This document shows positions 29,220 to 48,592 of a DNA stretch of 64,000 bases, one piece after another (the stretch's first letter is position 1; the number at the start of each line of letters is the position of its first letter). The translations under genes and the position numbers were made by a program. Source of the DNA: a virus (taxonomy: Duplodnaviria > Caudoviricetes); the IMG/VR virus record IMGVR_UViG_3300025389_000010, positions 161,757-225,756 of that record, one strand, 5' to 3'. The notes under the pieces were generated by a model that was not told where the DNA came from, made no database searches, and saw only the letters and a list, made by a program, of their open reading frames with translations.

Positions 29220-29291
29220 CTTTGTTTTACAAATCGCCTAATAGCAAATTTTTGCAGATGGGGTCTGTTTTTACACTTTGTTTTACAAATC
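29220..29291. repeat. Two half-sites of the GATTTGTAAAACAAAG element
   Basis: CTTTGTTTTACAAATC at 29220-29235 and 29276-29291. Confidence 0.9.
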
Positions 29292-29324
29292 ACTCGATTT
29301 TTTTCCGACCCTGTGCAAAAAAAA

Positions 29325-29348
29325 ACCCGATCCATTTCTGGATCGGGT
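29325..29348 (-). terminator. Intrinsic terminator after the RHH gene
   Basis: ACCCGATCCA-GAAA-TGGATCGGGT followed by a T-tract on the minus strand. Confidence 0.85.
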
Positions 29349-29369
29349 CTTGTGTGAGGTGCTTCTGGC

Positions 29370-29588
29370 TTATGCCTTTGCCTTGGCCTTGGGCTTGGAA
29401 GCCTTGGGCTTCTCGGCAGGTGCAGGGGTGGCCTTGCTCTGGACATACTGACGGAGGACATGGACGATGAGCTTGGACAGGGTGACATCGAACATCTCGC
29501 CTTTGGCGATCTCTTCGAGGCTGGCCTTGAGTTCGTCCTCGCAACGGAAGGTGACCATTGAGGACTTCTGCTTGATTGTGGCTGACAT
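29370..29588 (-). CDS. Ribbon-helix-helix (CopG/Arc/MetJ-type) DNA-binding protein with a Lys/Ala/Pro tail
   Basis: MVTFRCEDELKASLEEIAKG...LSKLIVHVLRQYV fits the RHH strand-helix-helix pattern; alternative start at 29654. Confidence 0.75.
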   Translation of the reverse strand: MSATIKQKSSMVTFRCEDELKASLEEIAKGEMFDVTLSKLIVHVLRQYVQSKATPAPAEKPKASKPKAKAKA

Positions 29589-29660
29589 GGGCGTTTGTGT
29601 TTTTGGGTTACGGCAAGCGTGACCGGCGTTGTGCTGGTGCGTTCCGATTGCCATATTGAA

Positions 29661-29689
29661 AGACTAGTCTCGTGCCTTTCGTTGGTCAA
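29661..29689 (-). promoter_or_regulatory. sigma70-type promoter of the RHH gene
   Basis: TTGACC-17-TAGTCT preceded by A-tracts. Confidence 0.7.
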
Positions 29690-29800
29690 CGACTATTTTC
29701 GTTGCCCTTCACTTTTTTTCTAGGGTGCAAAGTCGGTGTGTGAAACGGGGTTGTATTTTTACAGGGTGTGGCATTACCGCAGAGGTTGGTTTTCAGGAAC

Positions 29801-29842
29801 GATTTGTAAAACAAAGAATGTTCAAACTTTGTTTTACAAATC
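29801..29842. repeat. 42-bp palindromic element, copy 1
   Basis: GATTTGTAAAACAAAG-AATGTTCAAA-CTTTGTTTTACAAATC. Confidence 0.95.
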
Positions 29843-29908
29843 GAAACCGGGCGGAGGGTCTGTGTTTCCCGGTTTCCCGGTTTGAGTCTTGACATCGAAG
29901 CAAAAGAA

Positions 29909-29938
29909 AATCCCCATCACCTTTCGATGATGGGGATT
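29909..29938 (-). terminator. GAAA-loop terminator of the repeated family
   Basis: AATCCCCATCA..GAAA..TGATGGGGATT plus T-tract. Confidence 0.8.
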
Positions 29939-29962
29939 ACCCGTTTGCCTTTTCTCTTCTGC

Positions 29963-30247
29963 CTATTCCTTCTCGTTCATCTCTCTCTGCATGAAGTTTA
30001 GAATATCCTCCATCCGGTCGGCGGCTTGGTTAGGGCAGTTCCGAACAAGGAAGCGACGGACTCGGCTGGCTACTTGATTGCCTCGGCCCATGATATTCTC
30101 TGACTTGAATTTCTTTTTGGGCTTGCCTTCGATGATGATCTCTAGGTCGGCTTGGTCAGGGCAACCTATGCCTTTCCACAGGGTGAGACTGACTGACCAT
30201 TGACCGGAGCAAAGGGCACGAACGGAGGATTGGGTGTATCGGTTCAT
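29963..30247 (-). CDS. Hypothetical early protein
   Basis: 94 aa; overlapping stop/start chain. Confidence 0.65.
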   Translation of the reverse strand: MNRYTQSSVRALCSGQWSVSLTLWKGIGCPDQADLEIIIEGKPKKKFKSENIMGRGNQVASRVRRFLVRNCPNQAADRMEDILNFMQREMNEKE

Positions 30248-30444
30248 AGGTAGGAACGGAGGATGTTGGCGATGATCTTTGTGTGCTGTGCCCTGCCGTG
30301 GGCTTTCATGTAGCTTTCGGTGTAGATGCCGATATCGGCTTTGTTAAGGTCGGAGAGTTTGATTGTGACTTCGTCCCTGTAGGCTGAAAGGGCTTTTATT
30401 AAAACGATGATGTCGTTTCGGGTTAGAGGAACATGGGACTTCAT
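30244..30444 (-). CDS. Hypothetical early protein
   Basis: 66 aa; ATGA overlap. Confidence 0.6.
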   Translation of the reverse strand: MKSHVPLTRNDIIVLIKALSAYRDEVTIKLSDLNKADIGIYTESYMKAHGRAQHTKIIANILRSYL

Positions 30445-30626
30445 AGCGTGTAGTATTTCGGGGAGCGGTCTTCCAGCATTCCTACTAGGAGGAGTGCTTT
30501 CTGTGCGGTGGCGACACGCTTGTTGCCAAGCTGGACGCTACCATCGGCGTATGCTGTGACATCCATCCTGTATCCCTTCTTGAGAAGGAGATTCCAAATG
30601 GCTTCTAGGTTTTGTTTTTGGCTCAT
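30441..30626 (-). CDS. Hypothetical early protein
   Basis: Start refined to MSQKQNLE, downstream of the TTGACC box at 30677-30682. Confidence 0.6.
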   Translation of the reverse strand: MSQKQNLEAIWNLLLKKGYRMDVTAYADGSVQLGNKRVATAQKALLLVGMLEDRSPKYYTL

Positions 30627-30709
30627 GGGATCTGCTGGTTGAAGCATTGGGATAAAAATATCACCGGCAAATCGTGGGTCAATACTTTTTTCTGATTTTT
30701 TTTGGGCCT

Positions 30710-30841
30710 CGCCGGTCGTCGATTTGTAAAACAAAGTTTGGTGGTTGGTTGTACTACATCGTTGGTTCGCCGGTCGAAGATGGGCTTTCGCCGGTCGTCG
30801 ATTTGTAAAACAAAGTTTTGTTCAATTTTGTTTTACAAATC
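30710..30841. repeat. Half-site (30721-30736) and full 42-bp palindrome (30800-30841), with three CGCCGGTCG repeats
   Basis: Read directly; the spacer is again 10 bp. Confidence 0.9.
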
Positions 30842-30894
30842 GGTGCGGGTTAGACCGGCGTGTAATACCTTGCCTTGCGTGTAGTACAAAAAAA

Positions 30895-30938
30895 TACAAT
30901 ACAATACAATACCTTATCTGATATTGTATTGTATTGTA
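30895..30938. repeat. 44-bp TACAA-repeat palindrome
   Basis: TACAATACAATACAATA-CCTTATCTGA-TATTGTATTGTATTGTA. Confidence 0.9.
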
Positions 30939-30960
30939 TGGAGTCGTACTCTTTGTATTA

Positions 30961-31605
30961 CTAGTGCTTACGATAGCTTATGGAGTAGATTTCGGGATTC
31001 CAACAAGCTCGGCAATCTTTGCACTCATTGTTCTGTTGTGGGGCAGGGCAGGTGAATGATGACTTGGACACACCGCTTGTGGGCAATCCTAGCCTTTCGG
31101 CTATGGCATCGGGTGCAGGGCCGTCAATCATGAGGGCAGAGAGACGGATCGTCAGGTTCTTTGGCTTCTCATAGGTTGCCATGTATTGTTCAACCATTGC
31201 ATATTCCCTAGTCGGAAGCCAAAAGGTGATGTGGGGCAGATTCTTTGCAATCTCGGCAATCTTTGCAAGGTGATCGACACTCTGGATGTCTCCACTATCA
31301 TGCCAGCGAAAGAATCCGCTTTTCTCCTTTCGGTTGATAAGCCATGTGAGAACGGATGTCCACCTATCACTCTGTAGTGATGCGAAACGCTGTTGCATTG
31401 CGTCACGGGTCGTCTTAAAAACATAGCGTCCCTTCATTGCATAGCAAACGGAACACACAGAGCCTTTGATGTTTCTCATCTTTTGCCCTATCTTGCAATA
31501 GACGGCAGGGATGGAATATCCGTGGCATGGCATCTTTGACGGATTGGACAAAGAGCCAACGATTGATTTTGCGATTTTGATTGTGAGTTTGGGTGTGGTA
31601 GTCAT
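30961..31605 (-). CDS. GP88-like phage protein (Cys cluster, radical-SAM-like)
   Basis: SKMPC..YSIPA..C..G......GSVCS.CYA.KGRY...FFRWHDSGD...WLPTRE; start refined to MTTTPK. Confidence 0.75.
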   Translation of the reverse strand: MTTTPKLTIKIAKSIVGSLSNPSKMPCHGYSIPAVYCKIGQKMRNIKGSVCSVCYAMKGRYVFKTTRDAMQQRFASLQSDRWTSVLTWLINRKEKSGFFRWHDSGDIQSVDHLAKIAEIAKNLPHITFWLPTREYAMVEQYMATYEKPKNLTIRLSALMIDGPAPDAIAERLGLPTSGVSKSSFTCPAPQQNNECKDCRACWNPEIYSISYRKH

Positions 31606-31693
31606 GGGACTTGAAGCATCGGATAGATCAAAAGGGATTGCAAGAACTATTTTCAACTTTTTTTTCGGTTGACTTTTCTTCGATTCGAGCATC

Positions 31694-31778
31694 GATTTGT
31701 AAAACAAAGAATGTTCAAACTTTGTTTTACAAATCGTTCCTGATTATCTCGATGGTTTCAAACTTTGTTTTACAAATC
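31694..31778. repeat. Full 42-bp palindrome (31694-31735) plus half-site (31763-31778) in a local tandem duplication
   Basis: Read directly. Confidence 0.9.
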
Positions 31779-31830
31779 GTCCCTGATTTTCTCGATGGTG
31801 GTGTTTCGTTGTTGGGTATGAAAACAAAAA

Positions 31831-31854
31831 ACCCACCACCTTTCGGTGATGGGT
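31831..31854 (-). terminator. GAAA-loop terminator
   Basis: ACCCATCACC-GAAA-GGTGGTGGGT plus T-tract. Confidence 0.8.
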
Positions 31855-31878
31855 CTTTGTCGGGGGGATTGGGGGAGT

Positions 31879-32094
31879 CTATGATCTCAAGTATGCGATA
31901 TCTTTGGCATGATACAGGGTCAGGGCATCTTCTTCTGTCAATCCGATAAACTCATAGGGATCGAAAAAGATTTCATCGGGATAGTATGTGAAGAGAACTT
32001 TGATAGATCCATCCTCAAAGGTCGCAATGACTTGGGGCATGGGATCAAAGGGATTCTCTGGCATCTTGGTGATCTTGCACTCAACGATTTTCAT
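31879..32094 (-). CDS. Conserved hypothetical protein
   Basis: MPQVIATFEDGS...YYPDEI.F...EFIGLT; start refined. Confidence 0.65.
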   Translation of the reverse strand: MKIVECKITKMPENPFDPMPQVIATFEDGSIKVLFTYYPDEIFFDPYEFIGLTEEDALTLYHAKDIAYLRS

Positions 32095-32176
32095 GGTATT
32101 TGATTTGTTGGGGATGCCTCCTGTCACTCACTCAAGTGACAGGAGGACTTTCCCATTGCCTTTCTCTACTACCTAC

Positions 32177-32719
32177 TCAAATGATTTCGATGTGGTCGCC
32201 TTTGGCAACGATGCCAGCGATGTGGGATGGGTCAAGTTTGAACTGGGCAAACTTGCTTCTCTTGAAGTTGCAAGCCTTTTCAATGTCCTTCTTGGCAAGG
32301 GTCAGGGGGCGAGAGTTGACAGGTGCTTTCGTAACCTTTGCGGGTTCGATGGTCTGCTTGTCGTGGACATATCCGTAGATGTAGATTTCGCCAGTTTCGG
32401 TATGCTGTTTGATGCCCTTGCCGATATTTTCAAAAGTCTCCTTCTGCGTGTAGGAGGAAGAGACTCCTTCTGTCAGGGTTTCGTTAAGGCTTTGGAGCAT
32501 TTCGTCCTTGGCTTGAATCTCTAGGTCATTCTTGGGGACATACGCCTCTAGGGTCTTCTTGTCATCGGCAACGGCAGAACGATAGTCAATGCCGAAGTTG
32601 ATGACATACTTGGAAGTCTCCTGCGTTCCCTTGGTCGTGTAGAGGAAGGAAACAAAGGTGCAACCATTCTCGGTCGCCTCACGGAGTTGATCGACTGCCT
32701 TGATCTTGATGTTTTGCAT
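32177..32719 (-). CDS. Hypothetical early protein
   Basis: Start refined to MQNIKIK after an AC-rich leader; promoter TTGACC-16-TAATCT at 32767-32794. Confidence 0.7.
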   Translation of the reverse strand: MQNIKIKAVDQLREATENGCTFVSFLYTTKGTQETSKYVINFGIDYRSAVADDKKTLEAYVPKNDLEIQAKDEMLQSLNETLTEGVSSSYTQKETFENIGKGIKQHTETGEIYIYGYVHDKQTIEPAKVTKAPVNSRPLTLAKKDIEKACNFKRSKFAQFKLDPSHIAGIVAKGDHIEII

Positions 32720-32854
32720 AGTAGGATTTGGTTTGGTTTTGGGTTGATGTCTTATCGACAAGGAAGAGATTACCACAACCACGCCACAGGTCAATGGGTT
32801 TTTTTCATTTTTTTTCTACTCTGAAAACCGAGCCACCGGCGTTCTTACGGTGAC

Positions 32855-32896
32855 GATTTGTAAAACAAAGTTTGAACATTCTTTGTTTTACAAATC
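32855..32896. repeat. 42-bp palindromic element with the spacer in reverse orientation
   Basis: GATTTGTAAAACAAAG-TTTGAACATT-CTTTGTTTTACAAATC. Confidence 0.95.
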
Positions 32897-32942
32897 ATGC
32901 CCGTGCAAATAATAAAAAATTCGCTTGACATCCAGAAAATGA

Positions 32943-32976
32943 AAAACCCCACCACCCTTTCGGATGATGGGGTTTT
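32943..32976 (-). terminator. GAAA-loop terminator, identical to 44025-44058
   Basis: AAAACCCCACCACCCTTTCGGATGATGGGGTTT. Confidence 0.85.
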
Positions 32977-32998
32977 CCCAGTTTCCCTTTCTTCTACC

Positions 32999-33478
32999 TT
33001 ACACAAATGCTAGTCCAAGGGTCTTCATCTTGAAGCTCTCAATCTCGTCCCTAATCGCCATCCTCTGACGGAACAGGGCCATCTCTTCTTTTTGGAGAGC
33101 TTCCAGCTTGGCTTTCTTTTCAGCCTCAAACTCTGCCACCTTCTCCAGCTTCTTGAAGCGGTCAAAGAGGTTACGGCACTTCTGGATTGCCTTCACCTTT
33201 TCGGAATCGGTGACAAGGTTGGGATAATCGCCAGAAATTTGACGACCAGCAAGGATATGCTCGACAGCACTCTCCATGTTCTCAAAATAGCACTTGCCCA
33301 CTCCGTAGACATCGGACTCCGTTGTGAACTTTCCAGTTCGTATGAAGGTGTGATAATTGCTCCTACGATAGATCAACTCCCATCCTTTTGCTTCGATCTC
33401 GACAGGGCATACTCGCAGTTCGGTGATCCAGTTAAAAATCTGGACTCCGTATGACTTGAACTTCGGCGGTGTTTTCAT
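32999..33478 (-). CDS. Hypothetical early protein
   Basis: Start refined to MKTPPKF after an AC-rich leader. Confidence 0.65.
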   Translation of the reverse strand: MKTPPKFKSYGVQIFNWITELRVCPVEIEAKGWELIYRRSNYHTFIRTGKFTTESDVYGVGKCYFENMESAVEHILAGRQISGDYPNLVTDSEKVKAIQKCRNLFDRFKKLEKVAEFEAEKKAKLEALQKEEMALFRQRMAIRDEIESFKMKTLGLAFV

Positions 33479-33516
33479 TGTGTGTGTGTGTTGGTGTTTG
33501 GGTTTTGGGTTGGTTC

Positions 33517-33708
33517 TCACTTCTGCATAGTGTCGCAGTAGACTTGAAAGGACAGGTTGCCCTTCAAGTAACCACTTATGGCTACGCATTGGTGAATCGG
33601 ATAGCCAAGATCCTCGGCTAGAGTCATGAGTTTCCAGTATGAAAACTTTTTGGCAAGCCTTTTCGCATCGGTCAGGTTGCCGTTCATGAGATTTTCGATA
33701 GCGTTCAT
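33517..33708 (-). CDS. Hypothetical early protein
   Basis: Start refined to MNAIENL; promoter TTGCAT-16-TAGCTT ending at 33773. Confidence 0.6.
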   Translation of the reverse strand: MNAIENLMNGNLTDAKRLAKKFSYWKLMTLAEDLGYPIHQCVAISGYLKGNLSFQVYCDTMQK

Positions 33709-33811
33709 TGTATGATAGATAGTGTGGGTTGGGTGTGCGGGTATGAAGCTATCAACAAAAATCGGGTATGCAAGAACTTTTTTCAACTTTTTTTGGGCCT
33801 CCGAATTCCCC

Positions 33812-33922
33812 GATTTGTAAAACAAAGTTTTGTCCTACAATATCTTATCCTACAATGTTTTCATGCCTTCGCCCGGTGACGATTTGTAAAACAAAGTTTG
33901 GTTTAATATTGTTTTACAAATC
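33812..33922. repeat. Half-site (33812-33827) and full palindrome (33881-33922)
   Basis: Read directly; the right arm starts TATTGT. Confidence 0.9.
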
Positions 33923-33924
33923 GA

Positions 33925-34810
33925 CTACCGTTGAGCCGTGCGTATTACCTTGCAATACTTACAATGCAATATAAGACAATACATTACAATACCTTCACTT
34001 ATAAGACAATACAATATAACGAATTGTATCGTAATATCCTACAACTTTTTACTTTACAATTCCTTTGAAATCTACTTGGGAATCATTTCTTTCAATTCCT
34101 TTGAAAGATTCCCCTACAATCATTCCCCAATACCTTCCCAATATCCCTGTATCTGTATTGGTAATACCCTTGGGCAATATCCCTTTGGCCCTTCGGGGCC
34201 AATATGTATTGCCAATTCCCTTGCCCAAACCTTTGTCCCTACTATTGCCTCGTGCCTATCAATACATTCCCAATTTATTTCCAATATCTTCCCAATACTA
34301 TTTCCAATACATTGTCAATACATTTATTTCTTTATATTTTATTGTATTGCCTTGACTTTTGTCTTCCTTATGATCCTTGTATCGTTATGTCTTTTCGTAT
34401 CGTCATGCACACAATCCCCCCAATCTTGTTGTGAGGTAGCACCCTGTTGCAATTTTACACGGTGTTGCATTAAAACAGAGTTTGCCATTGTCAATACATT
34501 GTATTTTTATAGGTAAAACATTGCCCTATAATACCATACCTTGTATTCGCTATGATCTTGGTAGCACATTTTAATACATTGTCAATACTTTTCTTACAAA
34601 AAATTACATTGTAAAGTGAGTGTAATAAGAATATCTTACCAATGTTTGTTACAATGTTTGCCACAATGTAATAAGAATATCTTCCCAATGTTTGTTACAA
34701 TGTAATAAGAATCTCTTCCCAATGTTTGCCACAATGTAATAAGAATATCTTACCAATGTTTGCCTCAATCTCTTCTCAATGTTTGCCACAATGTAGCAAG
34801 AATCTATTTC
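33925..34810. repeat. Non-coding CAAT-rich block with 34-bp tandem repeats (candidate origin/iteron region)
   Basis: TGTAATAAGAATATCTT(A/C)CCAATGTTTG(TT/CC)ACAA at 34621, 34667, 34701 and 34735, plus a degenerate copy; G-poor plus strand; no credible ORF. Confidence 0.7.
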
Positions 34811-35337
34811 CAATTAAATCTTATGTAGTCTTTTATTGTATTGCTATTTCCTACTCTGTAAATATATTTGATACGCTTCAAGGGTTTGTTGAATCCCATG
34901 TCATAGATGGTTCCGTTGACTACTGCAAAGGCATGATCTCTGGTTACTGCTATGTATCTTCCCCTGTAATAGTCCATGAGCATTGCCCTTATTGTGAGTC
35001 CTTTCTTTGGGAGTATGTATTGGATCTGGTATCCTTCTGTCTTTATTAGGGTTTCCACTATCTTGTGTGTCCAGAATCCTTCGTTGTCTTTCCTTCCTGC
35101 TTGCCTTGCATAATCATGTGCTTTCTTGTATGGTAGTCTTAATGCTACTGCTATTGCCATGACTGTGCAGTTGTTGGTGTCTATGATCCTGTCCTTTGAT
35201 GCTCCTCCGTCTGTTATTATCGTTTTGGCCTTTATGAAACTTTCGTGTGCTTTCAAGAGAAGAGTTCCTTTATGGTTAGAATTAAGCATCCTACATAGTA
35301 TTGTAGTAGTGGTTGTTCTCTTACAATGCAGAACCAT
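34804..35337 (-). CDS. Conserved phage protein with papain-like Cys-His-Asp spacing (tentative)
   Basis: NNCTVMAIAVA...DHAFAVVNG.IYD. Confidence 0.55.
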   Translation of the reverse strand: MVLHCKRTTTTTILCRMLNSNHKGTLLLKAHESFIKAKTIITDGGASKDRIIDTNNCTVMAIAVALRLPYKKAHDYARQAGRKDNEGFWTHKIVETLIKTEGYQIQYILPKKGLTIRAMLMDYYRGRYIAVTRDHAFAVVNGTIYDMGFNKPLKRIKYIYRVGNSNTIKDYIRFNWK

Positions 35338-35681
35338 TCACCGTTTGGAGCCTTGTTCATTATCATTCCGTTCTTGAAGCGTAGGTAGATTTCTGATTCC
35401 TCGTTACAGGTTGGGCAGATTCCTTTCCTTATGACATTGACTCCTTTATTGCCATAGGTTGCATTGACTTCTAGGTTTGTGGGTATTGGTAGTCCTTGGT
35501 TTTCGCAGTTATCGTTTATGCAGGATATGGGTTCCTCTTCAAAGTCTTTTCTCATTTCGTCTTCATCGTATGTAGTCTCATGTTGTGATATATCATACAA
35601 TTCGTGCATCCTTTCCTCTGTTAATACCCTGTAATGGGTTGTAAAAAATACTCTTAATGCGGTAAATGGATCTATTCTCAT
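35253..35681 (-). CDS. Zn-ribbon protein
   Basis: CINDNC...CPTC. Confidence 0.6.
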   Translation of the reverse strand: MRIDPFTALRVFFTTHYRVLTEERMHELYDISQHETTYDEDEMRKDFEEEPISCINDNCENQGLPIPTNLEVNATYGNKGVNVIRKGICPTCNEESEIYLRFKNGMIMNKAPNGEWFCIVREQPLLQYYVGCLILTIKELFS

Positions 35682-35827
35682 GGTGTATAACCTGTTATTT
35701 TGTTGTAATTCCTTATTTTACTCTGTTAGCCTATAATTTTTCTTGTATTTTTATAGTATTTTTTCTCCATTTTGCCCCACTTTGGCCCACTTTTTGAAAC
35801 TTTTTCTTATATTTTTGGGCATTTTTA

Positions 35828-36058
35828 TCAGGGATATTGATGAATAATCTTGTCATTCATCATCTGTAATATGGAATACTTTGTAAGTTTTTTCCTACCT
35901 GCATTTCTTTGTTGCTGGTATTGTTGGTCGAGTGCTTCCCTTGCTTCTTCCAGAGTATCGAAATAGTAGAGTTGTGTATCCTCATCGACCTTGTTGCCGA
36001 AATAGGTATTTGTCCATTTTCCTCTGCTCCACCATTGGATATGATACAATGTTTTCAT
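35828..36058 (-). CDS. Hypothetical protein
   Basis: Start refined to MKTLYHIQ (ATGA overlap). Confidence 0.6.
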   Translation of the reverse strand: MKTLYHIQWWSRGKWTNTYFGNKVDEDTQLYYFDTLEEAREALDQQYQQQRNAGRKKLTKYSILQMMNDKIIHQYP

Positions 36059-36645
36059 ACCAGTTCTGGATGATCTTTCTTGGTCTTGGTATAGTCTGAC
36101 CACACTTGTAGGTCAAGTTTGGCGGGTGTCATGCCTCTGTTTTCTGCTTCCATCAGGAACCATCTTTCGATTTCGGGGTAGCGTTTCTTGCTTGGGGTTG
36201 CCTTTGGGACATCGTATCCAAGGAACTTCATCCACTTCAAAATATGGGTATCAAGGACTGCTACCTTGGTGTTGGGTCTGGAATGAAGGACAAAGAATCT
36301 TGCTGTCTTGCTTCCTATTCCAGAGATGCTTTCCAGTTCTTCTATGGTAACAGTCTTGAGTCTTCCCTTGAACTGAAGGATCTCCTTGAAGGCATGACCG
36401 ATCCTCTTATATTGTCCTAACTTGAACTCTCTCATGTGGATCTCTAGCCAATTATTCTTGATGAGAAATTCAAGATGATCGAAAGGCTTGCCTATCTGTT
36501 CCCACATACAACGCTTGAGAAACTCGTCGAGCTTCTTTGCCTGTTGCTCTGCTCCCTTTCCTGCCACAAGGATAGCGAACATTAGGAACTCTTCCAACTC
36601 CTCCTCTGTCCTGTTGAAGTTGGTGATGGTCTTTGGGGTTATCAT
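36055..36645 (-). CDS. HhH-GPD superfamily DNA N-glycosylase/lyase (Ogg/EndoIII-like)
   Basis: HhH motif LESISGIGSKTARFF with catalytic Lys, followed by VLDTHI with catalytic Asp. Confidence 0.8.
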   Translation of the reverse strand: MITPKTITNFNRTEEELEEFLMFAILVAGKGAEQQAKKLDEFLKRCMWEQIGKPFDHLEFLIKNNWLEIHMREFKLGQYKRIGHAFKEILQFKGRLKTVTIEELESISGIGSKTARFFVLHSRPNTKVAVLDTHILKWMKFLGYDVPKATPSKKRYPEIERWFLMEAENRGMTPAKLDLQVWSDYTKTKKDHPELV

Positions 36646-36656
36646 TGTATTACTTC

Positions 36657-36809: not shown

Positions 36810-36943
36810 TAGAAGAGATGGATGAAGTAGTTGATAGTGGTAGCGATTAGCATGATGACACAAACCAGCATCATAAATGCAAGGAAGGCAATCAAGGGTA
36901 AAAGTGCTTCAGCTTCGATTTCAATTTTCATTGTAGGATATTT

Positions 36944-40699: not shown

Positions 40700-40705
40700 T
40701 GTATG

Positions 40706-40918: not shown

Positions 40919-40932
40919 GTTGGAATATAATT

Positions 40933-41205: not shown

Positions 41206-41209
41206 TGTA

Positions 41210-41428: not shown

Positions 41429-41633
41429 AATTTGTAAATCGGTCTATGTGGTATGAATGTTCTCATTGAAGGACAAGTTCATTCTCTGTCATATAAGCGA
41501 ATTGATCCTGTGGGTGTGCCTTGAAGGTTCCGATTGTTCCGACTTCTTCTGACACAAAGAACCAGATGCCTTCGATCAGAACAGCAGGACGACCCATCTT
41601 CATTTTGACTTGTGTATGTGCTTGTATCATATA

Positions 41634-42254
41634 TCAATCCTCCTCTTCCTCGTTATCTTCCATCATTTGATAGTAGTTGTCAAGATCCAAGTCGTAGTAA
41701 AGATCACTACCCTCTGGAATCTCATCCATGTCCTCATAGCAGTTGTCTTGCTCACCATCGGGGCCGACGATGTATTCACCTGCAAACATATATCCTTCAT
41801 CGAAATATGTCATGCGAAGTGTTTCGCCGGTCAACTTTGCAAGCTCTCGTATGACTGCAATCGGTGGACTCCATGCCGTCTGGAAACTTATGTCACCAAA
41901 GTCCTCGACATTGTTGATGCTATCGTCCTCCAATGTCCAACAACTGTATGCGTTCCACTTGGTGTCCCATTTGTCAACACTCCAATCATACCAGTTCTTG
42001 TAACCATAGTCCTTCAAGTTCTGCTCTTGTAAGAGGTCGTGTTCCTTCTGCCTTGCGTCTATCTCCTCCTTGGTTTTCGGTTCGGTGATCTTCTCTATCG
42101 TAGATTCTAGGGTAGTCTTGTAGATTCCCTCTGGCATAGGGATTATCTTGTTGAAGTCAATACTCTTGCCATCATCTGTAAGATAAGGCTTGATGACTTC
42201 TCCGATATTCTTTCCGCTAGTGCAGGAAAGACTGTTTGTGCAATGATTAGGCAT
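41634..42254 (-). CDS. DUF1281/YubB ferredoxin-like fold protein
   Basis: MPNHCTN...DFNKIIPMP...WYDW...WDTKWNA...F.TAWSPP...YFDEG. Confidence 0.8.
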   Translation of the reverse strand: MPNHCTNSLSCTSGKNIGEVIKPYLTDDGKSIDFNKIIPMPEGIYKTTLESTIEKITEPKTKEEIDARQKEHDLLQEQNLKDYGYKNWYDWSVDKWDTKWNAYSCWTLEDDSINNVEDFGDISFQTAWSPPIAVIRELAKLTGETLRMTYFDEGYMFAGEYIVGPDGEQDNCYEDMDEIPEGSDLYYDLDLDNYYQMMEDNEEEED

Positions 42255-42460
42255 TGTATTATGTTGTTTGTTTTGGTGTTGGGGTTAATCTCTTACCAGA
42301 AACAGATGTCCTTGGTCAAGCACATCATTGGTTTCTTCCTCGGAAAATTCCGTTCTGGTTATGGGGTAGTATTCCTCATCCTCGGCATCGTAGATCGTGA
42401 TGGTATCCTCCAACCGATCCTTGGGCATGGAGTAAAGAATGTTGAGTAATTCAGCGTATG

Positions 42461-42670
42461 TCATTTGTCAAATGGTGTGGAGTAAGACCAAGAAGGTTCT
42501 GCTTTTACCTTGAAGAACATTCCGATCAACGGAAGGTTCGGGTGAGTTTGGAGTTTGACCCTGTAATCGGCATAAGCCCACAGGAATGATGCAACGAATC
42601 CCATCGCTAGGATGATGTTGACTCTGGTTGTGTATCTTCTGGATCTGATTATTGTTCTTGCTGATTTCAT
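42461..42670 (-). CDS. Small membrane protein
   Basis: One TM helix. Confidence 0.5.
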   Translation of the reverse strand: MKSARTIIRSRRYTTRVNIILAMGFVASFLWAYADYRVKLQTHPNLPLIGMFFKVKAEPSWSYSTPFDK

Positions 42671-42892
42671 AGTGGGCCGAATTTATTGTAGTAACAAATG
42701 ATTACAAAGAGTAACAGGAAAGTGAGTAAGGTCATGTGGTTGTAATACGATATTGATTCTTCAATCCTGCCATTGTATCCCAAAGGGTGAAGGTGTCAAT
42801 CCTATTCTGTGCTTCTTTTTGGGAATCGGACTGAACATTGTTGATGCTCACCCACTTCTTCAACGATGTGTTAAAGTATTCGACAATGTATT

Positions 42893-43114
42893 TCATTCGA
42901 TTTCGTAAATGTGAGTGCTGGTCGTTGTCTGCTTGATGCGATAGAAGTTGGAGATGTGAACTCCTGCTTCGTTGTCTGGATCGTTGCGATAGAGGTGTCT
43001 TGCTCCTTCTTCTGCATCCTCTCTGTTCTCATAAGTCAGGGAATATCTGTCAGACCACTTCCTACGATTATAGACTTCGATAGTGAAGACGGTTTGTGTC
43101 TCGGTGTTAGTCAT
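42893..43114 (-). CDS. Hypothetical protein
   Basis: Start refined to MTNTET. Confidence 0.55.
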   Translation of the reverse strand: MTNTETQTVFTIEVYNRRKWSDRYSLTYENREDAEEGARHLYRNDPDNEAGVHISNFYRIKQTTTSTHIYEIE

Positions 43115-43370
43115 GGTAAATGTGTGCCGTGATCTCGTTGGCTTGCGTGTCGAATGTGATCCTAGTAGCAAACCCTCTCATAATGCAATGAGGTTGTTTC
43201 TTCTGTGCATGACTCTCAATATAGGGAACCTTGATCTTGACATGGTTGACCATGTGGCAAGCACCTTCCCAATGCACGGTCATGACATTACGACCCTGCT
43301 TCCTTGCCTCTGCCTTGTTGTAGTGGTAGAAGAATCTCTTGGGTTTGACTGCAATGATATTGTTTTTCAT
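43107..43370 (-). CDS. Conserved phage hypothetical protein
   Basis: FFYHYNK...MTVHW.G.CH...QP.C.MRG; start refined to MKNNII. Confidence 0.6.
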   Translation of the reverse strand: MKNNIIAVKPKRFFYHYNKAEARKQGRNVMTVHWEGACHMVNHVKIKVPYIESHAQKKQPHCIMRGFATRITFDTQANEITAHIYHD

Positions 43371-43374
43371 TGTA

Positions 43375-43578
43375 TTATTCCTCGTAGGGGATGTCACTTG
43401 CAATTTCATACACATTCCACAGGTCTTTGTTGAGAGTGTGAGAATACTCAAGCGGTTCGTCGGGTGTGCCAGTAGTGGCATACTTGTTCTCGGCAATTTC
43501 GATTGCCTCTTCGGGACTCTCTGCCTCGACATACATCGTGGCATAATGAACTTCAGGGATGCTTACGCTATATTTCAT
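43375..43578 (-). CDS. DpnD/PcfM-like small protein
   Basis: MKYSV.I.E......VEAES.EEA.E.AE. Confidence 0.6.
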   Translation of the reverse strand: MKYSVSIPEVHYATMYVEAESPEEAIEIAENKYATTGTPDEPLEYSHTLNKDLWNVYEIASDIPYEE

Positions 43579-43865
43579 TTTGCTTTGGTTGGTTTGGTTA
43601 TGGAGACTTTAGCTTTGCAGAGATCCTTGCTCTGGTCAATCGTTTTTTTCTCTTTTGCGATTCTTTTTTTTCTACGAGTGATAGCCTTGGAAACTTCCTT
43701 TATGATGTCGGGTTTGAGATAACTGTCATTGCTTGTATCAATATGTGTGTCAAGAGGATTGCCACTCATTGTAGTATAATCGGTTACATAGATTTTGGCC
43801 TTGTCATGCTTCATGATATAGACCTCCCTTATGATAATGTCCTTCGTGTATTGCAGGATTCTCAT
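43575..43865 (-). CDS. Hypothetical protein
   Basis: 96 aa; TTGCAT-16-TACGAT-6 nt-ATG. Confidence 0.6.
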   Translation of the reverse strand: MRILQYTKDIIIREVYIMKHDKAKIYVTDYTTMSGNPLDTHIDTSNDSYLKPDIIKEVSKAITRRKKRIAKEKKTIDQSKDLCKAKVSITKPTKAK

Positions 43866-43945
43866 ACCCTGATCGTATCATCATCGTGTATGGATGCAAC
43901 AACTTTTTTTGAAAACATTGTAATACGCCTCCGTTGCCGGGTGAC

Positions 43946-43987
43946 GATTTGTAAAACAAAGTTTTAATATTCTTTGTTTTACAAATA
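43946..43987. repeat. 42-bp palindromic element
   Basis: GATTTGTAAAACAAAG-TTTTAATATT-CTTTGTTTTACAAATA. Confidence 0.9.
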
Positions 43988-44024
43988 TCGCAGCGGGAAG
44001 GTTCGGTGGTCGGATCTGAAAACG

Positions 44025-44058
44025 AAAAACCCCACCACCCTTTCGGATGATGGGGTTT
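44025..44058 (-). terminator. GAAA-loop terminator after the tRNA cluster
   Basis: Identical to the hairpin at 32943-32976. Confidence 0.85.
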
Positions 44059-44104
44059 CCCATGAACAGGATCTTACTTCATGTAAGACCCTTACCAACA
44101 AAGT

Positions 44105-44180
44105 TGGTGGGATCGTCGGGACTCGAACCCGAAACCAATTCGTTAAAAGCGAACTGCTCTACCGATTGAGCTACGATCCC
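44105..44180 (-). tRNA. trnK: tRNA-Lys(UUU)
   Basis: 76-nt cloverleaf, loop CT-TTT-AA, encoded CCA. Confidence 0.95.
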
Positions 44181-44207
44181 TAAAGTCATTTTTGTTTCGT
44201 TGATTGT

Positions 44208-44282
44208 TGGTGCATCCAGTAGGAATCGAACCTACATATAGGCTTTAGAAGAGCCTTGTCCTATCCGTTGAACGATGGATGC
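44208..44282 (-). tRNA. trnR: tRNA-Arg(UCU)
   Basis: 75-nt cloverleaf, loop CT-TCT-AA, encoded CCA. Confidence 0.95.
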
Positions 44283-44293
44283 TTTATTAAGGT

Positions 44294-44388
44294 TGGAAGT
44301 GGCGGAGGGAATCGAACCCTCGCTAATCCCACATCTAGGGAAGTTATAGGTATAAACTATATCGTGCTTCCAATTACACTACGCCACC
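44294..44388 (-). tRNA. Atypical long-variable-arm tRNA with UAU anticodon (nominal Ile; identity uncertain)
   Basis: 95 nt; acceptor GGTGGCG/CGCCACT-T-CCA; stem TATAG/CTATA around TT-TAT-AC; about 23-nt variable region with a TCCC/GGGA stem; T-loop TTCGATT. Confidence 0.75.
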
Positions 44389-44397
44389 TTGTAAGTT

Positions 44398-45717
44398 TTA
44401 GTCCTCCTTGGTTTGAGTTGCCTTCTTGAAGAAGTTCCTCAAGGCATTAAGGACAGTCGTTGTATCCTGCTTCTTCTTGATGAAGCGACCCTTCTCGTCC
44501 CTGACATTGTGATATGCCGTGGGTGTCGGTGTAGGCTTGCTGGTGTTCTGGTTTTCGTGGCAACCACATTGACCTCCGCAACATCCATCGTTGCCCTTAT
44601 TGCCTACCTCATCTTCCTCGGTGTAGGTGTATCCACACTTCTTGTCGAGGTAGTCGGTCAAGGTTGGTTCCTCATTCGTGGTCTTGCCAGCACATCCTCC
44701 TCCGTAGCAACCAGAGTATTCATCGTCGTAGCAGTTATCACAAAGGTCGTCACCATTGCCGTTGTAGTTCTCGTTATTGAGTTCCAACTTGCAGGAACAG
44801 CAATTACCAAGTCCTTCATCGTCATCGTCATCCTTGCACAGATAGCAAAGATTATCTCCGTTGCCATCATAGGTTTTTTTGTTCAAGAATCCTCCACAAT
44901 TATCGCAGGTATCATCGTTGTCATTGTCCTCATACTCTCCACCATCGGAGGAGTAGAGATCAGAGTCGAACCCATTCTCTCCACGATCCAGTTTGCTCCT
45001 CCAATCGTCGGTGTATTCAGCAACAACCTCATAGCGACAGGTGCGACCCTTGGTGTTGTTGTAGTCGGCAGGGATCGCCACAACATCCTTGGGATTGATC
45101 TTAACAATCATCGTATGACCTCCGCTTGAATCCCTGAAGTGAGGGAGGTATGCAATCGAACAGAAGTGCAGACCATAGGAGCAAGTGCGATCCTTGTCCT
45201 CATCGACACGATTGCGAGGCATCTCACAGACCTTGCCAACGGAGTTGTCGAACTTCCCACTATGAATGTCCTTGTAATCTGCCTTGACATTCTTGTAGGC
45301 AAGGAAGCAACCATCCTCGGTGATCGGGAGTTCCCCAACCTCAAGGAAGTCGTAGAGTTCATCTACTGCTCTCTTGGAAGGATTCTGCATGAGGTTCTCC
45401 AAGAACTTCACAAGAGGCTCAAACGGAAGATCCTGCTGAACAAAGCTAATGATCCTCTTGGTGAGAGTATTATGGAGTTCTTCATCGTTATACACAAGGA
45501 TGCCGTCCTTAATGGAAATACCATGTGAGAGGTAGGCATTGAGTTGACGAGAGACATCGACATACTCCACGAACTTGTGCCAGAATCCGTTCTTCACGGC
45601 ATCCAGCAGGATGTGGTAGTTGGGATGGTCGGTGTCAATCGCATAGGACTGACCGTTGACAAATGCGGCGATCTTTCCAGATCCCGTAATTGTGACTGCG
45701 TTGTTGGTGGTGTTCAT
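44398..45717 (-). CDS. rIIB: RIIB-like protein with a Cys-rich acidic C-terminal extension
   Basis: PITEDGCFLAYK...MPRNRVD...CSYGLH...KINPKDVVAIP.DY...KGR.CRYEVV; follows rIIA. Confidence 0.85.
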   Translation of the reverse strand: MNTTNNAVTITGSGKIAAFVNGQSYAIDTDHPNYHILLDAVKNGFWHKFVEYVDVSRQLNAYLSHGISIKDGILVYNDEELHNTLTKRIISFVQQDLPFEPLVKFLENLMQNPSKRAVDELYDFLEVGELPITEDGCFLAYKNVKADYKDIHSGKFDNSVGKVCEMPRNRVDEDKDRTCSYGLHFCSIAYLPHFRDSSGGHTMIVKINPKDVVAIPADYNNTKGRTCRYEVVAEYTDDWRSKLDRGENGFDSDLYSSDGGEYEDNDNDDTCDNCGGFLNKKTYDGNGDNLCYLCKDDDDDEGLGNCCSCKLELNNENYNGNGDDLCDNCYDDEYSGCYGGGCAGKTTNEEPTLTDYLDKKCGYTYTEEDEVGNKGNDGCCGGQCGCHENQNTSKPTPTPTAYHNVRDEKGRFIKKKQDTTTVLNALRNFFKKATQTKED

Positions 45718-45727
45718 AGCGTTAATG

Positions 45728-45755
45728 ATCTTATCAGGGTTTTGCTCGGTGTCAA
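45728..45755 (-). promoter_or_regulatory. sigma70-type promoter of rIIB
   Basis: TTGACA-16-TAAGAT. Confidence 0.7.
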
Positions 45756-45770
45756 TACGATTTCTTTGTA

Positions 45771-47795
45771 TTACTTGAGATTTTCTACAAGCAGGAGAAC
45801 TTCGTCAATCGACCAGTTATAGGTTCCAATCCTTGACAAGAGCAAGGAGATTGCCTTGTTAGACCCTGCATACTTGATCGGTGTGTTGGAACGAAACGAG
45901 TGACCCTCAAAGAGCAAATGGTCAATACTCCGATACTTGTAATACTTATCCATGCACTCGTTGACCTTGTTGACAAAGACCTTGAACTCGTTGTCCTTGG
46001 CAAGTGACATGAACTTGCTGTGCTTTACAATGTTCTGAATTGTCGATTGGTTGTAGTGATAGCAAGTTGCAAGACCTTCTTTGTCAATGTCGATCTTGAT
46101 GTTGTCGTTGATCCATTTGATAAAATCAACACAAGTGGCAGGAAGGTTCTTGACATTGTTCTCGGAAACCATGACCACATCCTTTTCGGTAAGTTCCATG
46201 AACTGCATGACCCGATACAGGTCACTCTTGTTGGCAATAAACTTTTGCAGACCCTTGATCGGGAAGTTGATGTCGTAGTTTTCCTTGGGTTTGACAAGGT
46301 AAAACTTTGGAGTCTGTGCATCGAATACCTCGGCATCCCAACCCTTCTTGTCGAGATCACCAAGATAATAAAGGTTGAACTGACCCTTGACCCTTTGCGT
46401 GGTCGTGGTCGTGCGACCCTTGCGTGATGCAGGGATGGGTTTGGGCAGACTGCTCACAGGCAGGAATGATTCCTTGGGGAACCCATTGGCAATCATCTTG
46501 TCGTATGCCTTACTTGAGAATACACAAATCTTGGTGTCCTCGTTAGACCTGACATGATGCCTGACACGAGAGATGCCACCCTTGATGTCATCATGGTAAT
46601 ACCATGTGATATTACGACCCATCTGGACATTGTGACTCTCGTTGATCTTGGTTCTGTAATACGAAGGCTTGCTGTATGTAATGCAAGGTATGGGATCGTC
46701 GGAAATGTGGTTGACCACATTAGCCTTGATGATCTCCCTGATGAAACCGTATGGATCGGAAATGTCCATGCCCTTCCACATGAGTTTGTCGATCTTCATA
46801 CCTTGTATGAAAGCGAACTGGTTGTGCAGGGTATAGACCATGTGCAAGGCATCGTAGATGTTTGTCTTCTCGGCAAGCATCTCGGTCAACCTCTTCTTGA
46901 AGTCCTCTTGAACCATTGCCAACTTGTCGTTGAGTGCCTTGATGGTTGCAGGACAATATGAGATAGACTCACGACTTGGAGTGAAATCAATCTCACCCAT
47001 CTTGAAGTGCAGGACAAGGTTTGCTTTGTAAAGCATATCCCGATACTTGCCGTCGAGCTTATAGGAGTTAATGGGATAGTTGACTCCTCCCATGATGGCA
47101 AAGCTACCATTCCAATCCTTCTTGCTATCGGCATAGCTTTCCCATCCATCGCCCTTGAACATGGGTGATTCAATGTTCCACTCGATCTTACCTCCCGTGA
47201 TGGTAGGCTTAACAGAGAAGAAACGAAATGCCTTGAAGGTTGCCGTCTTGAAGTCCTCAAAGTCACTTGCCTTGACAGGGATCTTGATGGCAACTCCGTT
47301 CTCCTCGGTCGTGTTCTCGGTAGATACCAGAGCAATGGCAGGAGTGTTGTGTTGGTTGAAGAAGGCATTGTATGTCCTCTTCACACCCTCATGGATACTC
47401 GTCACGGTGAAGGCATCGGTGTAGCAGAAAGGAGACTTGCTACCAAGACCAAGGCATCCAACTTGGTCATCGGTGTTGGTCTTTGTGCTTTCAAAGTATG
47501 TCGCATAGATATTGTAGATGTTCTCATGCGAGATGCCGGTTCCGTAGTCTTGAATGGTGATCCAAGGCTCAAGTGTATTGGGCAGATGAATGTGGAAGGG
47601 ACGATCCTTCTTACCAGATGCAACCATGCTATCGCTTGCATTGCATCCCAACTCACGCACGATGGCGAGAGGCTTATCGGAGTAGAGGTCAGAAAGAATC
47701 TGAAAAGCCTTGCGGCTTGACTTCATCTTGAACTCGTTCTCCTGTGTCACTTGTCCGATCTGCTCGACTGTGTTGGTGTTCTCTATCAGTTTCAT
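45771..47795 (-). CDS. rIIA: RIIA-like protein (GHKL ATPase N-terminus)
   Basis: LYSDK..AIVREL..NA.DS, IQDYGTGIS, STK...DQVGCLGLGSKSPF. Confidence 0.85.
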   Translation of the reverse strand: MKLIENTNTVEQIGQVTQENEFKMKSSRKAFQILSDLYSDKPLAIVRELGCNASDSMVASGKKDRPFHIHLPNTLEPWITIQDYGTGISHENIYNIYATYFESTKTNTDDQVGCLGLGSKSPFCYTDAFTVTSIHEGVKRTYNAFFNQHNTPAIALVSTENTTEENGVAIKIPVKASDFEDFKTATFKAFRFFSVKPTITGGKIEWNIESPMFKGDGWESYADSKKDWNGSFAIMGGVNYPINSYKLDGKYRDMLYKANLVLHFKMGEIDFTPSRESISYCPATIKALNDKLAMVQEDFKKRLTEMLAEKTNIYDALHMVYTLHNQFAFIQGMKIDKLMWKGMDISDPYGFIREIIKANVVNHISDDPIPCITYSKPSYYRTKINESHNVQMGRNITWYYHDDIKGGISRVRHHVRSNEDTKICVFSSKAYDKMIANGFPKESFLPVSSLPKPIPASRKGRTTTTTQRVKGQFNLYYLGDLDKKGWDAEVFDAQTPKFYLVKPKENYDINFPIKGLQKFIANKSDLYRVMQFMELTEKDVVMVSENNVKNLPATCVDFIKWINDNIKIDIDKEGLATCYHYNQSTIQNIVKHSKFMSLAKDNEFKVFVNKVNECMDKYYKYRSIDHLLFEGHSFRSNTPIKYAGSNKAISLLLSRIGTYNWSIDEVLLLVENLK

Positions 47796-47837
47796 GGGTG
47801 TTGGTGTTTATGGGTTGGTGTCGTATTGACAAGGGAC

Positions 47838-47865
47838 AATCTATACGATGGATCACCCGTGTCAA
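47838..47865 (-). promoter_or_regulatory. sigma70-type promoter of rIIA
   Basis: TTGACA-16-TAGATT with upstream A-tracts. Confidence 0.7.
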
Positions 47866-47927
47866 AACTTTTTTCGGTGTCCGAAACTTTTTTTATTTTT
47901 CCGTTGACAAGATACTTTGTATGATAG

Positions 47928-48003
47928 TGGTAGATGTGGTGAGACTCGAACTCACACTTGACGGATTTTAAGTCCGTTGCCTCTGCCGTTGGGCTACACA
48001 TCC
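47928..48003 (-). tRNA. trnL: tRNA-Leu(UAA) with a short variable loop
   Basis: 76 nt; loop CT-TAA-AA; 5-nt variable loop; A73; encoded CCA. Confidence 0.9.
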
Positions 48004-48021
48004 ATACTATGTAAAACTTAT

Positions 48022-48198
48022 TTACTCGTTGTCGTCATATTCTCCATCACTCTCGTCTCTCTCAAAACGAGAAGCATAAAGACCTTCATGCCTTCTGGCA
48101 TACAAGATACTCTCTTGCCATTCCTGTTCATCGAAATCATCCATGACTCTTGTGCATCCGTATCTGTCATCATCTAGGTTGAACGAGTATGTATTCAT
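48022..48198 (-). CDS. Small acidic protein (58 aa, not in the ORF track)
   Basis: MNTYSFNLDDDRYGC... Confidence 0.5.
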   Translation of the reverse strand: MNTYSFNLDDDRYGCTRVMDDFDEQEWQESILYARRHEGLYASRFERDESDGEYDDNE

Positions 48199-48223
48199 GT
48201 TTATATGGGGATATTATACGAAA

Positions 48224-48418
48224 TTATTGTTCGGTCAAGCACTTTTTGATGTATGCCTTCAAAATAGGAACTGCTCTCATGTGCTTATGGAAGATATATG
48301 AGTCTTTACCGTTAGGGTGAAGGACAATGTATTTGTTCTTTCTAATGAGAACACGCAGTCCTGCTCTCTGTGCGTTCTTGATCTCGGCATCGAACTCCTT
48401 GCAATGGTGGTTAGGCAT
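48224..48418 (-). CDS. Small basic protein (HicA-like dsRBD fold possible)
   Basis: G..V.IRKNKYIVLHPNG....FH pattern. Confidence 0.4.
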   Translation of the reverse strand: MPNHHCKEFDAEIKNAQRAGLRVLIRKNKYIVLHPNGKDSYIFHKHMRAVPILKAYIKKCLTEQ

Positions 48419-48550
48419 AGGTGTAGGTTGGTTAGGTATGGGTTGAGGAACATGAGACTAGCAGAAGCAGGAATCCGATCAAGCAAATTTTTCATGCACA
48501 ACAATGTTTTTTTTGTTGTTCTTTGTAATACGCCCCCGTCGCCGGGTGAC

Positions 48551-48592
48551 GATTTGTAAAACAAAGTTTTGTTTAATTTTGTATTACAATAC
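48551..48592. repeat. Degenerate 42-bp palindromic element, last copy
   Basis: GATTTGTAAAACAAAG-TTTTGTTTAA-TTTTGTATTACAATAC. Confidence 0.85.

Follow-up and report, generated by a model that had tools for sequence, protein, structure and literature searches.

Here we describe a dispersed family of 16-nucleotide (nt) DNA arms, joined in seven places into 42-bp palindromes, in the early module of the virus recorded as IMGVR_UViG_3300025389_000010 in IMG/VR. The source record comprises 225,756 bp and is rated complete by CheckV; the stretch analysed, hereafter called the window (64,000 nt), is its final 64 kb. The virus is a lytic, distant T4-like myovirus with a Gp23-type capsid gene (~35% identity to cyanomyovirus counterparts). 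The reading that we favour, with a confidence a little above even, is that the arms would serve as DNA operator sites for a phage-encoded, sequence-specific factor, placed upstream of host-type early promoters; that a protein binds, which protein it is and whether it activates or represses are points that we infer from the comparisons below. By sequence comparison, the arm is the form taken in this phage by an upstream element that recurs across the clade in lineage-specific versions and is confined to the rIIA early module, and what is new here is the clade-wide series of lineage variants together with a clean, concerted switch of arm sequence between two sister phages.

The arm, GATTTGTAAAACAAAG, was matched 18 times at two or fewer mismatches against 0.27 expected, a count that none of 100 shuffles reached (0/100); 15 of these matches are exact, two carry one mismatch and one carries two. 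The original prediction, made by a model that saw the DNA letters and their open reading frames, had listed 19 arms forming seven palindromes and five half-sites. The scan recovers all of these sites, the nineteenth arm (48577-48592) being degenerate with four mismatches. That prediction had also seen no copy elsewhere, which holds for the entire record: all 17 matches at one mismatch or fewer fall within window positions 29220-48566, with none in the other 206 kb. All eight loci are intergenic even though the module is 72% coding (P ~4e-5), and 10 of the 12 sites are packed into the 4.7 kb at the module's end (29.2-33.9 kb), which is rich in ORFans, the genes of 29.3-33.7 kb being mostly missing from relatives. 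Each palindrome is built as 16-10-16 nt. The spacer measures 10 bp in 7/7 palindromes, its letters vary and both orientations occur, just as had been claimed; TTTGAACATT fills it at 29801 and 31694, and the reverse complement at 32855. Stems are AT-rich, and the sequence directly after them is GTCACC, GACGACC or GTTCCTGA. As DNA hairpins the palindromes reach -13 kcal/mol (z ~-6), and the one at 48551 barely folds. Coordinates of the arms and associated features are collected in Table 1.

Table 1. Arms, palindromes and associated features of the early module (window coordinates; RHH, ribbon-helix-helix)
Feature	Position	Strand	Remarks
Palindrome	29801-29842		perfect 16-10-16; promoter-side arm 29801-29816; upstream of the RHH-like gene promoter; DNA hairpin -13.4 kcal/mol, z -6.2; switched orthologue in sister
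Palindrome	30800-30841		distal arm with 1 mismatch
Palindrome	31694-31735		perfect; same as 29801, spacer included; upstream of the GP88-like gene promoter
Palindrome	32855-32896		perfect; spacer inverted relative to 29801 and 31694
Palindrome	33881-33922		distal arm with 2 mismatches; deviation common to sister phage
Palindrome	43946-43987		distal arm with 1 mismatch; past the tRNA cluster and its terminator
Palindrome	48551-48592		promoter-side arm exact, distal arm degenerate (4 mismatches); module's first element
Single arm, distal type	29220-29235	-	past the module's last terminator; no promoter downstream
Single arm, distal type	29276-29291	-	past the module's last terminator; no promoter downstream
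Single arm, promoter-side	30721-30736	+	38 nt to -35 box; within a 79-nt segment missing from sister
Single arm, distal type	31763-31778	-	product of a 43-nt tandem duplication, missing from sister
Single arm, promoter-side	33812-33827	+	38 nt to -35 box; kept in sister
GC-rich box GTCACC(C/G)GGC(G/A)A	43931-43945; also 33869-33880, 48536-48550	-	touches promoter-side arm
Predicted promoter, RHH-like gene	29661-29689	-	TTGACC-17-TAGTCT; hexamers same in sister
Predicted promoter	30655-30682	-	TTGACC, 16 nt, TATTTT; A-tract ahead
Predicted promoter, GP88-like gene	31615-31643	-	TTGCAA ... GATGCT; A-tract ahead
Predicted promoter	32767-32794	-	TTGACC-16-TAATCT; A-tract ahead; sister keeps hexamers, promoter spacer altered
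Predicted promoter	33746-33773	-	TTGCAT ... TAGCTT; A-tract ahead
Predicted promoter	43872-43899	-	TTGCAT-16-TACGAT; A-tract ahead
Intrinsic terminator	32941-32978	-	upstream of palindrome 32855
Intrinsic terminators	29322-29351, 29909-29938, 30894-30939, 31827-31858, 44025-44058, 48682-48718		same layout
RHH-like gene, 72 aa	29370-29588	-	module's last gene; candidate cognate binder
rIIA	45771-47795
rIIB	44398-45717

The case for operators is carried by comparison with a sister phage, represented by eight contigs (L151-L159) that were reached via the RHH-like protein and two neighbouring proteins. Its DNA is ~86-92% identical and holds the same sites in the same places. Every sister arm (13/13), single arms included, reads CTTTGACTTACAAATC where this phage has CTTTGTTTTACAAATC, a two-base change from TT to AC, and the two switch positions differ in 26/26 cases. 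At the remaining arm positions the two phages are identical in 177/182 instances (97%), compared with 495/631 (78%) in the 60-nt flanks (p = 3e-11); the spacers agree at 22/50 positions (44%; p = 4e-7), yet their length is 10 nt throughout. The sister keeps the promoter hexamers and the distance from each arm to its promoter, promoter spacers vary, and a mismatch that breaks pairing in the distal arm of palindrome 33881 was inherited by both phages. The inner dyad that the original prediction had placed in each arm, TTTGT-N3-ACAAA, is present in the arms of this phage and broken in those of the sister.

This pattern fits recognition of the arms by a sequence-specific trans factor, and not a hairpin that needs pairing. 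The constraint on the arms, their single sequence per genome, the free spacer of fixed length and the tolerance of unpaired positions together suggest a factor that reads double-stranded arms, and, since close relatives differ in arm sequence, it is probably encoded by the phage. The idea of a protein-binding operator, put forward originally from the fixed geometry and free spacer, is thus favoured by the conserved arms, the divergent spacers, the uniform switch and the inherited mismatch. The search in related phages proposed alongside that idea did bring up homologous promoter-upstream elements, both in the sister, where the spacer length is kept, and in wider relatives.

Used as a single query against viral contigs, rIIA gave no match; through rIIA homologues, an entire clade of uncultured phages came to light as contigs. 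Each relative found in this way has its own heavily over-represented 8-12-mer built on the core xTCTTACx, and the lineage motifs run through AGGTCTTACA, TTTGTCTTACAA, GTCTTACGCA, ATCTTACAA, ATCTTACGGA and TGTATTACA to more distant forms, that of this phage being TTTGTTTTACAAATC. Some lineages have lone copies, all gene-facing; others have outward-facing inverted pairs set between a terminator and an A/T tract with -35 box, and the distance between arms is lineage-specific (14, 20 or ~30 nt from start to start, 19 in this phage). From the 8-mer to the -35 box, 21-23 nt is the commonest distance in relatives, with further modes at 10-12 and 30-35 nt; the element points towards the gene, and its most frequent end point, 21-23 nt ahead of that box, would put its centre near -62. 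Within a 210-kb relative, 29 of the 31 motif copies stand inside the rIIA module, and a third close relative (rIIA 94% identical, flanks 92-94%) has other filler at the place of palindrome 43946 and yet another core variant. Direct searches for the element were negative: the exact palindrome pattern had no match in viral or metagenome contigs, the single arm turned up in 53 viral contigs with one copy apiece, no more than chance would give, and Megablast of the island against phage records gave no match. The element is undescribed in the literature searched, motif-string searches having returned primers and unrelated matches alone.

Along the direction of transcription (minus strand), the recurring order is intrinsic terminator, element, often a GC-rich box, A-tract, -35 box and -10 box. 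The terminators, seven strong minus-strand hairpins with T-runs, precede the element by 40-90 nt. Predicted sigma70-type promoters (TTGACC/TTGCAx, 16-17-nt spacers, -10 box) lie downstream of 6/7 palindromes; their -35 boxes read TTGACC, TTGCAT or TTGCAA, and the gaps between promoter-side arm and -35 box are 38, 38, 46, 46, 50, 60 and 111 nt, in agreement with the earlier estimate of about 40-110 bp upstream of a leftward -35 box. A GC-rich motif had also been seen to abut many copies, and the box in question, GTCACC(C/G)GGC or CGACCGGCGA, does so in its first form at 33881, 43946 and 48551 and partly at 32855. The arm as the -35 box of a promoter of its own is ruled out, no -10 box being present 16-18 nt downstream. 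An intrinsic terminator was likewise rejected for arm and palindrome alike, given the AT-rich stem, the missing T-run and the absence of these sites from the output of the terminator scan.

From this layout, we propose that each palindrome would amount to two operator sites set back to back over an uncontacted 10-bp spacer. The gene-facing arm would belong to the promoter, upstream of the A-tract (a putative UP-like element) and of the -35 box of a host-type sigma70 promoter. Because the element stands upstream of the UP-like tract of host-type promoters, a factor on this arm may act on RNA polymerase from upstream, like class I activators or phi29 p4. The outward arm, which follows the terminator of the previous cassette, may help to insulate neighbouring units, and the element as a whole would co-regulate a set of small accessory early cassettes. 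Such rapid divergence of sites among closely related phages recalls specificity of the immunity type, and for this reason we lean slightly towards shut-off; the geometry would suit activation just as well.

Other features adjoin the elements. Repeats of the form TACAATAC/GTATTGTA border three palindromes (window 30894-30939, 33940-34060 and 48580-48670); those at 30894-30939 form a 20-bp hairpin with a T-run, which is the terminator of the GP88-like gene, and the repeat is similar to the lineage motif TGTATTACA of relative L077. Just outside the module boundary, an HNH/NUMOD4 homing-endonuclease gene (window 28628-29146, plus strand) adjoins the two terminal arms, and the sister sequence departs from that of this phage exactly at this gene.

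A candidate for the cognate binder is the 72-aa product of the RHH-like gene. Four independent signals point weakly to a ribbon-helix-helix fold in its sequence: the Pfam family RHH_1 (E = 0.017, under the cut-off), a six-frame search for RHH (E = 0.0056), a CopG-family protein as best PDB match (E = 0.78) and Atlas features, which lead to RHH families at 0.88-0.90. An AF2 single-sequence model contains two helices (pLDDT 63), and Foldseek with this low-confidence model gave no match. Pfam scans of 40 island proteins returned no DNA-binding family besides the weak RHH signal, and the protein forms a single cluster among 5.8 billion proteins. Comparison of this phage with four sister contigs shows just two substitutions over the first 59 residues, I5T and Q7N, both in the N-terminal head, and of the 14 nucleotide differences within the first 177 nt of the gene, 9 fall in its first 33 nt (p = 1e-4); the two substitutions accompany the TT-to-AC arm switch in one lineage pair. 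As a clade-wide factor the protein is weakened by the lack of a homologue in five relatives. That it binds the arms in this lineage is a possible but somewhat doubtful identification.

Several points weigh against operators of this kind. The promoters are predictions, and a generic promoter scan does not rise above shuffles (51 vs 40 +/- 6). The original prediction had the element marking the transcription units of the early module, and this does not hold for all of them: the sites crowd into the 4.7-kb end, and the rIIA promoter, many other early promoters and most of 34-43 kb have no copy. Arms 29220 and 29276 lack a downstream promoter, and the gap from arm to -35 box, 38-111 nt, is longer here than in relatives. 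A pooled Rayleigh test (n = 55) gives p = 0.24 at 10.5 bp, which is not significant, and 0.02 at 11.5-12 bp; helical phasing is suggestive only. As for the RHH-like protein, the co-variation of I5T and Q7N with the arms is a single evolutionary event, the fold assignment lies below the Pfam cut-off, the predicted beta-strand residues are the same in both phages, and the gene is missing from five wider relatives that carry such elements. Moreover, the copies could be kept uniform with no binder at all, by ectopic gene conversion confined to the homologous arms. Such conversion may also have contributed to the spread of the switch, which is compatible with recombining cassettes of the promoter-early stem-loop (PeSL) type.

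Gene conversion leads to the alternative that we regard as unlikely but worth keeping in sight, namely that the repeats are PeSL-type recombination linkers: their main role would be as short homologies at which the highly recombinogenic T4-type replication and recombination machinery swaps, duplicates and deletes self-contained cassettes, the copies being kept alike by gene conversion with no dedicated binder. The layout of terminator, repeat, AT-rich tract and sigma70 promoter is that of PeSLs (PMC2839356, PMC4122927), 10/12 sites stand among ORFan genes missing from relatives, and the indels relative to the sister, duplications of 79 nt and 43 nt, start or end at arms. The arms also group into flank subfamilies, which suggests copy-and-paste spread, and the genome has another repeated promoter cassette, of 29 nt. 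Against this, 16-nt arms are short for homologous exchange and are more constrained than the adjacent promoter-proximal DNA, both phages hold the spacer to one length, which recombination alone does not require, and several relatives have a single 8-10-mer at the preferred distance from the -35 box. The linker and operator readings are not exclusive. Recombination of a more specific kind, with the sites as targets of a nuclease or recombinase that mobilises cassettes or mediates marker exclusion between co-infecting relatives, and altered to escape the enzyme of the other lineage, is in our view very improbable. Inverted arms about a central spacer do look like the core of a recombinase site, arm sequence changes rapidly among close relatives (three variants), the HNH/NUMOD4 gene adjoins the terminal arms where the sister diverges, and 29801 and 31694 have identical spacers in direct orientation. 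The profiles for tyrosine (PF00589) and serine (PF00239) recombinases, however, had no match in the genome, which also deprives the earlier suggestion of a recombination signal of a detectable enzyme, and the 10-bp spacer differs among most copies, unlike that of lox- or FRT-type partners. Homing endonucleases, for their part, usually have one target and not twelve, and the tie to promoters and the preferred -35 distance in relatives would be left unexplained. A lox-like site was accordingly rejected, there being no recombinase match and no identical overlap (only 29801 and 31694 share a spacer). For the DNA-entry or partition role that had been suggested as well, we found no supporting evidence.

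A further alternative is that the palindromes work through structure: as a cruciform or a single-strand DNA hairpin, or, where transcripts read through, as an RNA hairpin that serves for processing or as a terminator in reserve. Perfect 16-bp stems of -13 kcal/mol as DNA (z ~-6) invite this explanation; the two-base switch is compensatory within each palindrome, and hypervariable, inverting 10-nt loops are a typical product of template switching at hairpins. Yet the single arms switched likewise, all copies in a genome have one sequence in common with no stem-by-stem drift, the mismatches at 33881 are uncompensated in both phages, 48551 barely folds, and several relatives have lone gene-facing copies only. 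With no T-run past the stem and the sites lying beyond good intrinsic terminators, we consider a structural role improbable. Lastly, the sites could have been borrowed from a host global regulator or nucleoid protein for use at early promoters, which have to work before any phage protein exists; the core TTACA(A/T) resembles frequent half-sites of the -35-like and response-regulator kinds. In close relatives that come from the same lakes, however, this core differs (TT, AC, TC and others further out), and 16-20 nt invariant within one genome go beyond the need of a degenerate host site, so that a host protein as the reader of these arms seems to us a very slight chance indeed.

Operators read by a phage factor would bear on a poorly known matter, the timing and insulation of early accessory genes in large lytic phages without MotA and AsiA. 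The element is a cis-element with unusually clean comparative evidence (conserved arms, a free spacer of fixed length and the same switch in every copy), and the sister pair offers a natural experiment in which TT and AC arms can be set against proteins with I5/Q7 and T5/N7. If binding holds true, PeSL-type cassettes would carry a dedicated, fast-evolving operator layer, with bearing on phage competition, the exchange of anti-defence cassettes and sets of non-cross-reacting regulatory parts. A more speculative extension, which we hold to be unlikely on present sequence comparisons, is that T4-like phages of this freshwater clade carry an immunity-like system, in which a small phage regulator and dispersed early-cassette operators would switch specificity jointly and fast; the regulator here would be the RHH-like protein, with substitutions at positions 5 and 7 of its reading head. 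If this is true, each lineage would govern no early accessory genes but its own, and could shut down or disregard those of relatives in the same cell.

The module itself stands out by composition: the genome has ~30% G+C and window 28.6-48.7 kb has 40-46%, a block of small minus-strand genes and five tRNAs. A chimeric assembly behind this jump is ruled out, since every relative fetched has the same low-to-high step at the rIIA module; the jump is thus not an assembly artefact. Early genes of window 29-48 kb have CA-rich leaders, for example ahead of rIIA, which are conserved clade-wide, and no Shine-Dalgarno (GGAG-type) motif was found in these leaders or in those of relatives; such leaders may inform on host identity. 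The two small genes heading the module (window 48224-48993) are 56% and 71% identical to positions 546-1093 of L067, whose rIIA is 94% identical, and the DNA between genes around palindrome 48551 cannot be aligned with L067; sequence comparison here points to a mosaic joint at the module head. A 95-nt tRNA (window 44294-44388, minus strand; anticodon UAU, called Ile) is far longer than the tRNAs next to it. A conserved hairpin of GGTCTTAC, 5-6 nt and GTAAGATCC immediately follows tRNA-Lys (window 44060-44095, minus strand; L067 5105-5235; L160 655-785), and in the L067/L160 lineage its 5' arm is repeated, inverted, past the terminator.

Beyond the module, a second repeated cassette consists of nine minus-strand, promoter-like 29-nt units at both ends of the record (window 63452-63928 and genome 73-2520), each made of TTGACA, an invariant CT-rich 17-nt spacer and TAGAAT. 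With an ATG just 6 nt past each -10 box, the small genes would seem to be leaderless or nearly so, and the unit is also found in relative L063. A full-length tmRNA gene lies at window 12952-13403 on the minus strand (Rfam RF00023, 93 bits; ARAGORN did not report it). There are also two giant minus-strand genes, one at window 49886-55387 (1833 aa, 23% G+C, no family match) and one at window 655-10668 (3337 aa, with concanavalin/laminin-G-like domains).

Among known systems, the heteroimmunity of temperate phages rests on operator/repressor specificity types, in which the sites of a genome share a sequence that differs between close relatives. Here, by contrast, the phage is lytic and T4-like, the sites stand upstream of promoters without overlapping them, and, because they are dispersed over 19 kb with conserved flanks, the arms were not exchanged as one module. 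The sites of phi29 p4 are inverted repeats with a ~15-bp spacer upstream of the A3, A2b and A2c promoters, where p4 contacts RNA polymerase at the C-terminal domain of its alpha subunit and activates or represses according to the strength of the core promoter. These resemble the present elements as palindromic sites with an uncontacted spacer, well upstream of the host-type promoters of a lytic phage and several to a control region; they differ in being few and clustered, whereas the family here is dispersed, and the arm sequences are unrelated; no p4 homologue came up, though no search was aimed at one. Class I activators such as CRP use dyad sites centred near -61.5, -71.5, -82.5 and -92.5, which the element of the relatives, centred near -62, recalls, although the arms here are not CRP-like and the periodicity is not statistically secured. 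An N4-type hairpin promoter, in which a virion RNA polymerase reads a conserved stem of 5-7 bp closed by a 3-nt loop, was rejected: the arm here could fold into such a hairpin, with 5 bp in the stem and 3 nt in the loop (-1.8 kcal/mol), but the switch in the sister breaks the stem, and the 3337-aa protein considered as an N4-type virion RNA polymerase has lectin-like domains and not a polymerase. A cyanobacterial HLR1/RpaB-type site is ruled out by the lack of a direct repeat at 10-bp spacing.

Closer to home for a T4-like phage is the MotA box of T4 middle promoters, (a/t)3TGCTTtA (PMC1524935). Within the arm stands TTTGTTTTA, a single letter off TTTGCTTTA, and, like the T4 box, which is read by a phage factor, the present element belongs to a T4-like phage and is proposed to be read by one. 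A MotA box, however, takes the place of the -35 box and has its centre at -30; the arm does not, and an ordinary -35 box follows further on. A MotA-dependent middle promoter is ruled out, no TAnnnT being present 11-13 bp past any arm, and the profiles for the MotA C-terminal domain and AsiA (PF09158 and PF09010) matched nothing in the genome up to E = 1.

The original prediction had recognised the element from no described system, a claim that does not survive, since the layout of the cassette is that of PeSLs, the promoter-early stem-loop cassettes of the T4-type phages RB49/phi1, T4/PST and KVP40/nt-1 (PMC2839356, PMC4122927), and homologous elements that differ in sequence exist in relatives. 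As with PeSLs, the carrier is a T4-like phage (Gp23 capsid, rIIA, rIIB), and in its small self-contained early cassettes a stem-loop terminator is followed by an AT-rich tract and then by a sigma70-like promoter, here predicted. In both, the cassettes are concentrated among ORFans, the repeat sequence is lineage-specific, and indels between close relatives fall at the repeats. A PeSL unit, however, ends at its 3' side in a Shine-Dalgarno motif and start codon, whereas the leaders here are CA-rich without a Shine-Dalgarno motif. Here, a separate 42-bp AT-rich palindrome is additionally placed between terminator and AT-rich tract, and its copies changed in concert between sister phages. By this analogy, the closest described kind would be the PeSL cassette of T4-type phages, in this clade with an added putative operator.

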